Shown here: piece after piece, positions 11,549 through 16,867 of the stretch | Numbering within the stretch: position 1 is the first letter of the stretch | Layout of the letters: every line of letters starts with the position of its first letter | DNA from: Candidatus Poribacteria bacterium | GTDB taxonomy: Bacteria; Poribacteria; WGA-4E; WGA-3G | NCBI GenBank assembly: GCA_965214095.1 | Contig: OZ243938.1 | Coordinates: 160,001-224,000, forward strand | DNA length: 64,000 nucleotides | Reading direction: 5' to 3' | The notes under the pieces: generated by a model | Told to the model about the DNA's origin: nothing | Seen by the model: the letters and a program-made list of their open reading frames with translations, nothing else | The model's database searches: none | Translations under genes and position numbers: made by a program

Positions 11549-12739
11549 ATGACAACAACAGATATTAAAGAAATGGCAACGGAATATATTATTAACACTT
11601 ATGGAGACAGAAGTCTTGCCTTCGTCAAAGGTGAAGGTCCCTATCTATGGGATGCAGAAGGTAAGAAATATCTCGATTTCTTAGGTGGCTTAGCAGTTAA
11701 CGGATTAGGGCATGCACATCCAAAGGTTGTTGCAGCAATACGCGAGCAAGCAGGAAATATCCTCCACACCTCCAACCTATATTACATACAACCACAAGCA
11801 GAATTAGCAAAACTACTCATTGATAATTCTGATATGGATCAATGTTTCTTCTGTAATAGTGGTGCTGAGGCGAATGAAGCGGCGATCAAATTGGCACGGA
11901 AATATACGAAAGACAAGGGTAGAACAGATGCCTACGAAATCATTACAATGGACAATTCGTTTCACGGACGAACAATGGCTACCATTACTGCCACTGCACA
12001 GACAAAATATCACGTTGGATTTGAACCGATGCTTGAAGGTTTCACCTACGTTCCTTTTGATGATTTAGAAGCAACGGAATCTGCAATTAACGACAAAATC
12101 TGCGCTATCTTAGTAGAACCGATCCAGTCAGAGGGTGGGGTTAATATCCCAAGTGATGGATATCTACACGGATTACGTGAACTCTGTGATAAAAATAACC
12201 TGCTGCTGATATTTGACGAAGTCCAAACAGCGATGGGAAGATTAGGGACATTTTTCGGTTACCAGAGTTACGGTGTAGTACCTGACGTAATTACCATGGC
12301 AAAAGCACTCGGAAGTGGAGTTCCTATCGGGGTAATGTTAGCCAAACGCGATGTTGCAGAGAGTTTCGTTCCTGGCACACACGCAGCTACTTTTGGTGGA
12401 AATTTCTTATCCTCTGCCGCAGCAGTTGCGACAGTAAGAACTATATTAGATGAGAACCTTGCAGTAAATGCCGTGAAAATGGGGAACTATCTCGCAGGTG
12501 GTCTCATGGAACTCAAAGATAAGTATCCGATAAAAGAGGTGCGTGGGAAAGGATTGCTACGTGGTCTTGTAATGGAAGAGGACGCAAAACCACTCGCAGC
12601 GAAATGCATTGAAAATGGCTTAGTAACAATATGTACCAACGATTATGTCCTCCGTTTTCTACCGCCTCTTAATATCAACAATTCACATGTTGAGGAAGCA
12701 GTGAATCTCGTTGAAAAATCCATGTCTGAGGTCTACTAA
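11549..12739 (+). CDS. argD: Acetylornithine aminotransferase
   Basis: FFCNSGAEANEAAIKLAR, SFHGRT, LIFDEVQT, TMAKALG (PLP lysine), HAATFGGN. Confidence 0.9.
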   Translation: MTTTDIKEMATEYIINTYGDRSLAFVKGEGPYLWDAEGKKYLDFLGGLAVNGLGHAHPKVVAAIREQAGNILHTSNLYYIQPQAELAKLLIDNSDMDQCFFCNSGAEANEAAIKLARKYTKDKGRTDAYEIITMDNSFHGRTMATITATAQTKYHVGFEPMLEGFTYVPFDDLEATESAINDKICAILVEPIQSEGGVNIPSDGYLHGLRELCDKNNLLLIFDEVQTAMGRLGTFFGYQSYGVVPDVITMAKALGSGVPIGVMLAKRDVAESFVPGTHAATFGGNFLSSAAAVATVRTILDENLAVNAVKMGNYLAGGLMELKDKYPIKEVRGKGLLRGLVMEEDAKPLAAKCIENGLVTICTNDYVLRFLPPLNINNSHVEEAVNLVEKSMSEVY

Positions 12740-12930
12740 GTCAATAACCCCGTGCTAAAGCATCGGGGCTTGTGCGAAGCGCATGCCAAGCGTTCACTCC
12801 ACAAGTTAAACTATTTTCTACAGTCATATATCGGGTGTTCTGAACGTGGCAGTCCAATGTATGTTTCGGATGCTCCCCAAGTCCGATTCCTCTACGAATA
12901 CCCGATCTGGATGGGGCAATATATACTCTT
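12740..12930 (+). ncRNA. omegaRNA (OMEGA/HEARO-like) scaffold
   Basis: Stems CTTGTG/CACAAG, ATCGGGTGTTC(12830-40)/GAATACCCGAT(12896-906) and TCGGA/TCCGA. The loop CCCCA is complementary to TGGGG(12912-16), giving a pseudoknot. Located between the element end and isrB. The 3' boundary is approximate. Confidence 0.8.
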
Positions 12931-12943
12931 CGGAGGTTTACAC

Positions 12944-13951
12944 ATCTTAGTTCCAGTAGTAGACAAAAATCAACACCCTCTCATGCCTACAAAACCCTCA
13001 CGGGCGAGGCGTTGGATACAAACAGGGAAAGCGACACCCTTTTGGAATAATGGTATATTTTGCGTCCGACTCAATGTTGATCCATCAGACACTGAACTCC
13101 AAGACATAGTGGTTGGTGTGGATCCTGGTAGTAAGAAAGAAGGCTTTAGTGTGAAATCAGAGAAAAGGACTTATCTGAATGTGCAAGCGGACGCACATAA
13201 CAAGGTTGGTAAAAAGGTTGAAAAAAGACGTGAACTTCGTAGATGTAGGCGTTCACGGAAGTGTCCTAATCGGAAAAATAGGACAAACAAACTTGCTAAC
13301 AGAGAACGTCTACCTGCTGGCACGCGTGCGAGATGGGATTGGAAGTTAAGGGTACTTAATTGGTTATCTAAACTCTATCCTATTAGTCATGTATGTGTAG
13401 AAGACATCAAAGCACGGACTATCAAACGCGCTAAAAAGTGGAATCAATCTTTTAGTCCATTGGAAGTTGGTAAGCAGTGGTTCTATACTGAAATCAAGAA
13501 GCGATGGCACCTGCTAACACTCCAAGGATACGAAACAAAGGAAATCCGTGATAGGCTTGGGTTGAAAAAGTCTAAACAGAAGTTAGCAGAAACCTTTGAC
13601 ACACATTGTGTGGATAGTTGGTGTCTTGCTTATCATACTGTCGGCGGTGATAGCATACCAGATACGACAGATATATTCTGTATATCACCCATACCGATAG
13701 CCAGACGCAATCTACACAGAGAACAACCGAAAAAAGGGGGTATCCGTTCACGATATGGTGGCACTTTGCTAAAAGAAGGATTGGTCAAGAACACACTTGT
13801 CAAGCATATCAAATATGGATTGACAAGATTAGCAGGTGTCAACGCAAAAGGATTGTTTTCAATCTATAGCATTGATGGGGAACGATTGACAACGGGTGCA
13901 AAACAAAGAGATTTCAAGGTGTTAACTAAACTAAACTTTCAATATAGATAG
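12944..13951 (+). CDS. isrB: IsrB RNA-guided nickase (PLMP/RRXRR + split RuvC, no HNH)
   Basis: VPVVDKNQHPLMPT (PLMP), GVDPGSK (RuvC-I), RRELRRCRRSRK (bridge helix), CVEDI (RuvC-II), THCVDS (RuvC-III); no HNH between RuvC-II and III; about 335 aa from the ATC placed after GGAGG. Confidence 0.88.
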   Translation: MLVPVVDKNQHPLMPTKPSRARRWIQTGKATPFWNNGIFCVRLNVDPSDTELQDIVVGVDPGSKKEGFSVKSEKRTYLNVQADAHNKVGKKVEKRRELRRCRRSRKCPNRKNRTNKLANRERLPAGTRARWDWKLRVLNWLSKLYPISHVCVEDIKARTIKRAKKWNQSFSPLEVGKQWFYTEIKKRWHLLTLQGYETKEIRDRLGLKKSKQKLAETFDTHCVDSWCLAYHTVGGDSIPDTTDIFCISPIPIARRNLHREQPKKGGIRSRYGGTLLKEGLVKNTLVKHIKYGLTRLAGVNAKGLFSIYSIDGERLTTGAKQRDFKVLTKLNFQYR

Positions 13952-14005
13952 GAACGGGCATTTCTCCCCGTGCTAAAGCAGCGGGGTCTCCTGCCCGATG
14001 ATTAG

Positions 14006-14866
14006 ATGAGAAACCATCAGAATAATGGAATTCTAATTTTGTTAGGTATTTCGTTCTTATGTATATGTACATTCAATCTTGGTTGCAGTATAAAGAATAC
14101 AAACGTCAGATGGTCCCCTATGGAAATGTCCGACTTTGAACCACATTTAGCAACACTACAAGCACGATATGACCTAACTGAAACGTTAAAATCCACTAAG
14201 ATGATGGTAACTATTCAGGAAGCTGACAATAGTCCTGAAGAACTCCGCGAACTGTTATGGTATAAAAAGACTTCAGATGGTGGGGAACTACTCAGAATCA
14301 ATGTATTAGGAGCATTCAACGATACCAAGGGATTAGCAATCGCAAATAAAGAAAAATTCCTTTTAACGCTCCTTGATGAACAAAAAACATACATCGGTGA
14401 ATTAAACGATGGAATATTAAGAGAGATCTTTGGTGTAGACCTACGTGTTTCAGACGTTCTTAGTGCTATCTTTGCCAATCCTTTTCTTGATGGACGAAAT
14501 GCATCATTAGAGTTAGAGAAATACGGAAAAATAATCCGTGTCACTAGACCGGGGGTTGGAACCGATTACAAAGAGACCATTTTGCTCAAAGTTCAAGAAG
14601 ATGAACCACACGTAACAGAATGGAAAATTGAGAACGAAAACGGGGTACTACAACAAGTTACATTTGCTGATTATAGAGATGTTGATGGTATCTTACGGGC
14701 TAACAAGGTTGAAATAATCCGGCCACCAGAACAGACACGTGTCGTTGTCAGAATAGAACAAGTTCAGCATCACATAGATATAAAAGACAGCAAATTTAAC
14801 TTAGACCCATTCTTATCCGACGATTTTGAGATTATAACCATTTCAAATGAAGACGAACCAGAATGA
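14006..14866 (+). CDS. Lipoprotein, LolA/LolB-like fold (DUF4292-like)
   Basis: Hydrophobic N-terminus with lipobox-like LGC; VTFADYRDVDG motif; sits in the lolB position upstream of ispE. Confidence 0.55.
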   Translation: MRNHQNNGILILLGISFLCICTFNLGCSIKNTNVRWSPMEMSDFEPHLATLQARYDLTETLKSTKMMVTIQEADNSPEELRELLWYKKTSDGGELLRINVLGAFNDTKGLAIANKEKFLLTLLDEQKTYIGELNDGILREIFGVDLRVSDVLSAIFANPFLDGRNASLELEKYGKIIRVTRPGVGTDYKETILLKVQEDEPHVTEWKIENENGVLQQVTFADYRDVDGILRANKVEIIRPPEQTRVVVRIEQVQHHIDIKDSKFNLDPFLSDDFEIITISNEDEPE

Positions 14867-16135: not shown

Positions 16136-16867
16136 ATGCAACAAGCAAATTTAGAAGTTCAACAAAGAGACACTTTTGGAAAACAGAGCGCGCGAGCAAT
16201 ACGACGTGCTGGTGATATACCCGCAGTTGTTTATGGTCGTAAACAGGAAACAATCCCGTTAAAAATTAATGAACGCGCATTGAAAAAGTTCCTACGCGCC
16301 TATGGTGAGAACGTCATCATTAACATTGAAGTAACTGAAGGCAATTCAGAGCCAGTTGTCATTAAAGAAATACAACGTGATCCTGTTGAGAAACAGATGC
16401 TACTTCATGCCGATTTTATACGCATTTCTTTAGATGAACCTGTTACCTCTTCTGTTCCAATAATATTAGTCGGCACACCTATTGGTCTGCAAGAGGGTGG
16501 TGTTATTGAATTCCCACTCCGTGTACTCACTCTTAATTGTTTACCTGCTATAATGCCTAACGAAATCACTGTTGATGTTACTAATATGGATATTGGTGAT
16601 ATAATCTATGTTCAAGATATTGAACTTGATGAGGAAATTGAGCTATTAGATGAACTTCAACGTATGATCGTGTCTGTAAGCCAACCACGCGTAATTGTGG
16701 AAGAAGTTGTTGAGGTAGAAGAAGGTGAGGAAGGCGAAGAAGGTGAGGAAGGTGAAGAAGGTGAAGAACGCGCAGAAGGTGAAGATACTAAATCTGATGA
16801 TGCCGAAGAAGAACGGACTGAACCTGAGCTAATTTCACGCAGGCGACGTAAAGACGACGATGAATAG
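16136..16867 (+). CDS. rplY: 50S ribosomal protein L25/general stress protein Ctc (long form)
   Basis: GKQSARAIRRAGDIPAVVYG, IQRDPV..LLHADF, acidic EEG tail. Confidence 0.95.
   Translation: MQQANLEVQQRDTFGKQSARAIRRAGDIPAVVYGRKQETIPLKINERALKKFLRAYGENVIINIEVTEGNSEPVVIKEIQRDPVEKQMLLHADFIRISLDEPVTSSVPIILVGTPIGLQEGGVIEFPLRVLTLNCLPAIMPNEITVDVTNMDIGDIIYVQDIELDEEIELLDELQRMIVSVSQPRVIVEEVVEVEEGEEGEEGEEGEEGEERAEGEDTKSDDAEEERTEPELISRRRRKDDDE

Follow-up and report, generated by a model that had tools for sequence, protein, structure and literature searches.

What kind of locus occupies positions 12740 to 14005 of the window analysed here (a stretch of 64,000 nucleotides (nt), to which all coordinates without a contig name refer), and is the protein that it encodes still made? 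The original prediction, drawn from the sequence alone, described positions 12740 to 13997 as a complete OMEGA locus, in which an omegaRNA and an IsrB protein are carried by a non-autonomous element of the IS200/IS605 type. IsrB is an RNA-guided nickase related to IscB, the ancestor of Cas9, and it is the smallest known relative in the Cas9 lineage. Our analysis leads to much the same answer, as the interval from 12740 to 14005 is very probably a non-autonomous OMEGA element of the IS200/IS605 family, with genes for an RNA-guided nickase, IsrB, and for its omegaRNA. It is a canonical IsrB-omegaRNA element of a family that is already known, and it shows three small departures from the usual form: an ATC at the start position of the gene, a mobilising transposase that could not be matched, and a placement next to a host start codon.

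The identity of the protein carries most of this answer. On the plus strand, the reading frame is open from position 12752 to the TAG stop codon, and its IsrB-like part starts at 12944 (ILVPVVDKNQHPLMPT...). The predicted open reading frame (ORF) of about 335 amino acids with a PLMP motif, a bridge helix and three RuvC motifs was recovered with 335 codons and all of its motifs: PLMP at residues 12-15 (within HPLMPT, 11-16), GVD at 58-60, VED at 152-154 and HCVD at 221-224, the catalytic codons being those of D60 (13121-13123), E153 (13400-13402), H221 (13604-13606) and D224 (13613-13615). A Pfam search of the protein returned RRXRR as the sole family with an expectation value (E) of at most 1 (residues 3-157, E 9.7e-35) and, as had been predicted, no HNH family at E<=1. 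When protein sequences of the PDB were searched with phmmer, the best match was the IsrB of Desulfovirgula thermocuniculi (DtIsrB; E 5.1e-38, query residues 3-276), for which a structure has been solved (PDB 8DMB; Hirano et al. 2022, PMC9581776), whereas IscB proteins matched the N-terminal ~115 residues only. In the alignment, GVD60, VE153D and H221CVD224 fall opposite the RuvC motifs VDPG, TED and THANDA of DtIsrB, and the 67 residues between E153 and H221 align to it without an insertion or an HNH-sized gap. Across 32 homologues with 30-85% identity, E153 never varies, and conservation reaches at least 90% at D60, H221 and D224.

The predicted fold points in the same direction. The AlphaFold2 model of the protein (predicted local distance difference test (pLDDT) 86.5, predicted template modelling score 0.84) shows a beta-beta-alpha-beta-beta pattern at residues 3-43, in the PLMP domain region, an arginine-rich bridge helix at residues 87-103 that carries RRELRRCRRSRK, and a poorly ordered linker at residues ~155-176, at the position where IscB has its HNH domain. 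The C-terminal, beta-rich residues 284-334, predicted to form the target-adjacent motif (TAM)-interacting domain, have pLDDT values above 90 and fall inside the 346-column fold alignment with 8dmb. In fact, 8dmb was the top Foldseek match (E 8.7e-26, template modelling (TM) scores 0.80/0.82), followed by IscB proteins (TM 0.57-0.70) and RuvC resolvases. The protein therefore has the sequence and the fold of an IsrB, with a PLMP domain, a split RuvC domain with a bridge helix, a short linker that replaces HNH, and a C-terminal beta domain.

The second component, the RNA, occupies the 204 nt between the left end of the element and the ORF. An Rfam scan of positions 12300-14300 gave one match, to HEARO at 12740-12926 along the full model (1-211); it scored 28.4 bits (E 0.0019) against a gathering score of 83, and, because it falls under that threshold, we call the RNA HEARO-like and not a curated member of HEARO. 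A covariance-model scan, which had been proposed as a check, thus provided a full-length match of sub-threshold score. Stronger evidence came from a structure test with 16 distinct copies, taken from the organism's own assembly (G000; 5.25 Mb in 4 contigs, including C1) and seven relatives, in which an RNAalifold consensus was compared with 500 shuffles. The consensus contains 53 pairs, of which 25 show compensatory changes; the central long stem (12830-12840 with 12896-12906) has 7 covarying pairs, and P1 (12740-12744 with 12770-12775) is also supported by covariation. Once the pseudoknot between CCCCA and TGGGG is added, 97.1% of the cells are paired, as compared with 85.8% in the shuffles and 27-45% when the partners are slid; double changes occur at 25 of 55 pairs, and none of the 500 shuffles reached any of the five measures. 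Consequently, the nested stems that had been read upstream of the ORF do fold, and the 204 nt are a conserved, covarying structured RNA of the HEARO/omegaRNA type.

Two pseudoknots of this RNA deserve separate comments. The CCCCA/TGGGG pseudoknot, part of the original prediction, is complementary in 16 of 16 copies, with four invariant pairs and one one-sided wobble change; as its pairs are almost invariant, covariation cannot test it, and it should be taken as compatible with the data rather than proven. The other, a candidate between GCCA and UGGC, shows one compensatory change from G-C to A-U, present in 2 near-identical copies, and by its position it may correspond to the adaptor pseudoknot formed by stem-loops (SL) 2 and 5 in DtIsrB.

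Further support comes from the exact limits of the element and from its additional copies. Five full-length copies are present in G000, at 100, 100, 99, 99 and 93% identity and at unrelated loci (those outside the window are at C1:2601064, 4221017, 1931294 and ~4128131), so the proposed genome search for further copies was fruitful. An alignment of these copies with their flanks shows agreement between GTCAATAA (12740) and GATGATTAG (14005) and divergence outside. Moreover, two genomes of the same genus, G001 and G005, have an empty site in which both window flanks abut, ...TTTACTAA being followed directly by ATGAGAACC, with a junction that reads TAA and then ATGAGAA (in G001, the longer sequence is ...GGTTTACTAA followed by ATGAGAACCC). 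The filled and the empty site differ by exactly 1266 base pairs (bp), there is no target-site duplication, and ATGA abuts the right end. Because of the five-copy alignment and these empty sites, the element can be placed exactly at 12740-14005: the predicted left end stands, and the right end moves from 13997, where the outer stem of the right hairpin finishes, to 14005. All five RRXRR matches and all five HEARO matches (20.2-29.5 bits) of G000 coincide with the five copies. No other RRXRR gene was detected in a profile search of the genome. Similarly, a purpose-built covariance model scored 230 bits at the window locus and 222-230 bits across the five copies, and its search of G000 found no standalone omegaRNA, the next matches (~24 bits) being hairpin ends of other elements. 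With five full-length genomic copies and structure statistics beyond all 500 shuffles, the element is not a product of chance.

These same copies bear on the possibility that the gene is not part of a mobile element at all and is instead an IsrB-like gene domesticated for a host function, such as RNA-guided regulation. The locus lies within an operon-like row of genes and is co-oriented with its neighbours, and domestication is known for related TnpB nucleases (10.1101/2023.11.30.569447). Nevertheless, four of the copies, found at unrelated loci, share 99-100% identity, congeners have an empty orthologous site, so that the locus is not fixed across the genus, and the RuvC catalytic residues and both end hairpins are intact, all of which makes domestication extremely improbable.

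Some additional observations concern the spread of these elements. Besides the full-length copies, the genome search of G000 returned short matches to the last ~48 nt of the element. One solo right end, at C1:1994679 on the minus strand, comprises ~59 nt with 93-96% identity followed by ATGA, contains no IsrB gene, and could be either the remnant of a copy or a miniature element. In contigs from four sequencing runs (X1, X2, X5 and X6), no contig spans across the element and the empty-site form was not found; the contigs stop at the element ends, and their loose ends match flanks of other copies. A loose end of X2 at 12740 joins the left end to a flank unlike those of all five assembled copies, and it may represent a sixth insertion site. 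In turn, G003 and G032, from the same genus, carry many copies of an IsrB element with 71-72% identity (15 and 14 matches, respectively, including a few that are partial or concern flanks). The IsrB element family has thus expanded unevenly within the genus.

The ends have the organisation of IS200/IS605 transposons, that is, subterminal imperfect hairpins and no terminal inverted repeats. It had been claimed that both ends carry the same hairpin, and the left (CCCCGTGCTAAAGCATCGGGG) and the right one (CCCCGTGCTAAAGCAGCGGGG, at 13966-13986) do agree at 20 of 21 positions in the same orientation. The inner hairpin motif has 21 matches in G000: nine in IsrB copies, one in the solo end, seven and three in two other end types, and one that is probably due to chance. 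The hairpin is therefore common to IsrB elements, to the family of elements that encode a TnpB of 391 amino acids, and to some further ends. It closes other elements at C1:414618, 491812, 1009391, 1616956, 2317020, 3857627 and 4996848 (and at 2318393, 2714324 and 2836283). In those elements the outer stem differs and the flank is TGATAA; three belong to the 391-amino-acid TnpB family, and near four others no nuclease gene was called.

Mobilisation in trans, as originally proposed on the grounds that the window holds no tnpA, is a more delicate point. No tnpA was found in the element or in the 64-kilobase (kb) window, and G000 contains four intact Y1 tnpA genes and one partial Y1_Tnp, all of them outside the window. 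The four intact genes lie in tnpA-tnpB elements (C1:81623, 2170036, 2385609 and 4230081), whose end hairpins, of the CCCAAGTC-TTTA-GACTTGGG type, are like the IsrB ends (on the other strand) in their loop and general architecture but differ in stem sequence. The partial Y1_Tnp, at C1:2666075, has no hairpins nearby. Among the five relatives searched, no listed TnpA lies within 10 kb of the listed IsrB copies, and none was found in G001. According to a preprint, iscB and isrB genes are rarely adjacent to tnpA (~1.5%; 10.1101/2023.03.14.532601). Mobilisation in trans by a Y1 TnpA, the norm for the IscB/IsrB family, is thus plausible and even likely. It deserves a look that one end hairpin is common to the IsrB and TnpB elements, whereas another is used by the genome's only transposase genes.

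The flanks of the element indicate what its guide and its target motif would be. By analogy with DtIsrB, the guide would be taken from the 5′ flank, and the 5′ flanks indeed differ among all five copies, as expected for a guide of this origin. At the 3′ side, ATGA follows four of the five copies (A, B, C and E) and also the solo right end. The motif published for DtIsrB is NTGA, located 3′ of a 20-nt target (PMC9581776); the ATGA flank fits it, and RNA-guided nicking next to an NTGA-type TAM can be predicted. Diverged subfamilies in relatives have ATGG or ATAG flanks, and the many diverged copies of the genus with ATGA, ATGG and ATAG flanks constitute a natural series for the study of motif and RNA co-evolution.

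In the window, insertion took place directly after the stop codon (TAA) of a class-III aminotransferase gene (Pfam Aminotran_3) and directly before the ATG of the next ORF. A survey of 23 insertion sites (five from G000 and 18 from relatives, where 20 copies had been retrieved but two had no right end in the available DNA) suggests that such a location is frequent. In 12 of the 23 copies, the frame set by the flanking ATG contains no stop codon within the examined flank (61-74 codons), as compared with a background of 20.5% across all 100,676 ATGR sites of contig C1 (binomial p 7e-4). In several left flanks, words resembling GGAG, AGGA or AAGG can be read by eye 5-10 nt before the junction; for instance, the empty site of G001 has GGAGG 8 nt before the ATG. 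In another example, at L025 (one of the relatives' loci L020-L038), the downstream S10-like start reads MKNQKIRIRLKAFD. The elements thus tend to sit exactly between the ribosome binding site and the start codon of a host gene and to be co-oriented with it. Elements in this position would obtain their guide and omegaRNA from host transcription, and the position may reflect target choice, the survival of harmless insertions, or both.

One could go further and propose that the IsrB elements of this genus are “start-codon parasites”, with an ATG(A/G) motif, which rely on the promoter and 5′ untranslated region of the host gene for transcription and for the guide, and whose nickase gene, in the lineage of the window, has changed to an AUC start and is nonetheless under selection. 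We advance this only as a tentative idea, possible rather than probable. If it were true, the element would have to permit expression of the host gene (an S10-like ribosomal protein gene in one relative), and the AUC start might serve to keep the dosage of the nickase low. A scan of positions 12300-14300 gave no promoter or terminator signal (4 promoter-like sites as compared with 4.7 expected, and 1 terminator-like site as compared with 1.8). No description of start-codon placement or of a non-AUG start was found for IsrB in the literature examined, which did not cover the founding IscB/IsrB and HEARO papers, and Poribacteria are not mentioned alongside IsrB, IscB, HEARO or RRXRR among the literature matches listed.

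Several observations weigh against a canonical IsrB element. First, the NCBIfam model guided_IscB matches residues 5-156 of the protein, and only those, with a score of 94 against a cut-off of 175. This match to the N-terminal half could be taken to mean that the protein descends from an IscB through a recent deletion of the HNH domain and lies outside the IsrB clade. Such an origin is, however, hard to credit, because the best sequence and fold match over the whole length is DtIsrB and not an IscB, because the spacing described above leaves no HNH gap, and because the length is shared by thousands of proteins: 3416 homologues were matched among length-matched proteins, thousands of them with 335-345 amino acids, and a library of representatives at 50% identity contained 1488 clusters at E<=1e-3, of which 181 reached E<=1e-30. 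Second, the HEARO score lies far under the gathering score. Third, the 3′ flank of copy D (C1:1931295-1932560) is AGGA, which is not NTGA, and its ancestral junction could not be placed, as G001 and G005 are syntenic and empty there but too divergent in their intergenic DNA; the copy is bordered by AGGAG on either side. Fourth, the sole Y1 TnpA family of the assembly uses hairpins unlike the IsrB ends, and no cognate transposase was matched. Last, the codon at 12944 is ATC in all five copies, and every relative compared has ATG there (the listed homologues begin MLVPVVDKNQHPLMPT or similar), so that protein output may be low or absent. The locus had been called complete; its omegaRNA, ORF and ends are all present, and it is the start codon that departs from this description.

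The ATC also provides the basis for the alternative that deserves most attention, namely that the element is a silent, decaying passenger, in which the change from ATG to ATC abolished IsrB expression, the copies spread by means of TnpA in trans, and the omegaRNA is left without a partner. Besides the codon itself, this would agree with the lack of any other RRXRR gene in G000, with the established fact that transposition by TnpA does not need tnpB or iscB (10.1101/2023.03.14.532601), and with the 8 of 15 variable coding sites that are non-synonymous among copies A-D. By contrast, all five isrB ORFs are intact, and copy E differs from A-D with a rate of non-synonymous change (dN) of 0.031-0.037 and a synonymous rate (dS) of 0.198-0.219 (dN/dS ~0.18), an argument that could be weakened by gene conversion between copies, if ATC spread after the measured divergence. 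The non-synonymous share among A-D is itself below the 78% expected (one-sided p 0.03, for sites that are not independent). Additionally, a strong GGAGG at 12932-12936 stands 7 nt before the ATC, an in-frame ATG is found 11 codons upstream (and a further one at 12857, which would give a form of 364 amino acids, P0001), and contigs from two other studies (X5 and X6) that cover 12944-12946 show no variant. In view of these data, we regard a silent passenger as unlikely. In our reading of the sequence, IsrB would still be made, either weakly from the AUC, which follows a strong Shine-Dalgarno sequence, or with 11 extra residues from the AUG at 12911.

If the element works like others of its family, a mechanism can be sketched from studies of IsrB, IscB and TnpB. 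A transcript starting in the upstream host gene would carry ~20 nt of flank as a guide, followed by the scaffold. IsrB would bind this omegaRNA and make a nick in the non-target strand of DNA in which a match to the guide is followed by (A)TGA. The nicked target would be the empty donor site that is left once a Y1 TnpA acting in trans has cut the element out in single-stranded form; since excision would abut the left flank, which matches the guide, to ATGA, this is the geometry expected for an attack of the ribonucleoprotein on the empty donor site. Such an attack has been described for TnpB and IscB (10.1101/2023.03.14.532601). Repair from a sister copy would then restore the element, leading to homing or retention, while new sites would be reached by TnpA-mediated insertion 5′ of ATGA on the plus strand. 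In this scheme, the hairpins at both ends would be the handles for TnpA, and the left one would double as stem-loop 1 of the omegaRNA. The features of the locus are collected in the following table.

Table 1. Coordinates of the element and its parts within the window
Feature	Positions	Strand	Basis
Predicted guide segment, outside the element; last 20 nt of the class-III aminotransferase gene, including TAA	12720-12739	+	Inferred from the 20-nt 5′ guide of DtIsrB
Whole non-autonomous IS200/IS605-type element, 1266 bp	12740-14005	+	Five-copy alignment; empty sites in G001 and G005
omegaRNA scaffold (HEARO-like), 204 nt	12740-12943	+	HEARO match; covariation across 16 copies
Left-end hairpin; omegaRNA stem-loop 1 of the guide-adaptor region, likely TnpA recognition hairpin	12748-12768	+	Helix 2, 3 of 8 pairs covary
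GCCA loop, 5′ half of the candidate adaptor pseudoknot with UGGC (12847-12850)	12785-12788	+	64 of 64 cells paired
CCCCA loop, 5′ half of the pseudoknot with TGGGG (12912-12916)	12875-12879	+	Helix 9, 100% paired
Upstream in-frame ATG, alternative start, 11 codons before 12944	12911-12913	+	Inside the TGGGG pseudoknot strand, no Shine-Dalgarno
Terminal small hairpin CUC UUCG GAG, holding the Shine-Dalgarno GGAGG (12932-12936)	12927-12936	+	Helix 10, 2 of 3 pairs covary
isrB ORF, 335 codons and TAG stop (13949-13951)	12944-13951	+	RRXRR; 8dmb sequence and fold matches
Right-end nested hairpin	13955-13997	+	Outer stem CGGGCA (13955-13960) with TGCCCG (13992-13997); inner hairpin 13966-13986
ATGA, predicted target-adjacent motif, also start codon of the downstream 286-amino-acid ORF	14006-14009	+	Flank comparison

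Elsewhere in the window, the ORF at 16136-16867 finishes in an extended acidic stretch in which EGE units recur (EGEEGEEGEEGEEGEE). Regarding the source of the DNA, the proposal of a probably uncultured lineage fits solely through the source names of homologues, which are present for 4 of the best 120 of the 3416 matches and are all Candidatus Poribacteria.

One more IsrB ortholog leaves the general picture unchanged, and its practical value is modest. Its assets are a scaffold shorter than that of the thermophilic enzyme studied so far (204 as compared with 262 nt), a motif, ATGA, that is readable from the flanks, and a source that is probably mesophilic. The features that deserve attention are the frequent placement at host start codons and the fixed ATC start.

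Among known systems, DtIsrB is the closest one. Both proteins have, in the same order, PLMP, RuvC-I, the bridge helix, RuvC-II, a short linker in place of HNH, RuvC-III and a C-terminal TAM-interacting beta domain. According to PMC9581776, the omegaRNA of DtIsrB is likewise encoded 5′ of the ORF and combines a hairpin at its 5′ end with a long stem of the nexus type and pseudoknots, and in both systems the Shine-Dalgarno sequence is found within the last omegaRNA hairpin; the scaffold of DtIsrB measures 262 nt, and its SL1 is dispensable for nicking and has been proposed to serve mobility. The two proteins differ in that they are only ~30% identical, in the ATC at the start position here, and in their sources, a thermophile in one case and, judging from the homologue source names only, a probably mesophilic, symbiont-type organism in the other.

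The likeness to IscB (e.g., OgeuIscB, PDB 7XHT and 7UTN) includes the PLMP/RRXRR N-terminus, the split RuvC domain with its bridge helix, the upstream omegaRNA and the IS200/IS605 context. However, IscB cleaves both strands and possesses an HNH domain, which the window protein lacks, and the resemblance is looser in both fold and sequence, as given above. With respect to the HEARO RNA of Rfam (RF02033), the full-model match includes the first hairpin (CCCC..UAAAG..GGGG) and the GGAUGC..CCAGUCC hairpin, but the model contains a 46-nt segment that has no counterpart here, and in the Rfam alignment P1 includes several non-canonical pairs. Finally, the element resembles the ISGst-family non-autonomous IS200/IS605 elements, which, as described in 10.1101/2023.03.14.532601, have no tnpA, carry subterminal hairpins, generate no target duplication, and have an element-adjacent motif that is shared by the transposase and the nuclease. 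The multicopy state within a genome is also common to both (G000 has 22 TnpB Zn-ribbon matches and 5 IsrB copies). The differences are that the cargo here is an IsrB nickase, and that the inner hairpin is shared with the 391-amino-acid TnpB family while the resident tnpA elements have different ones.

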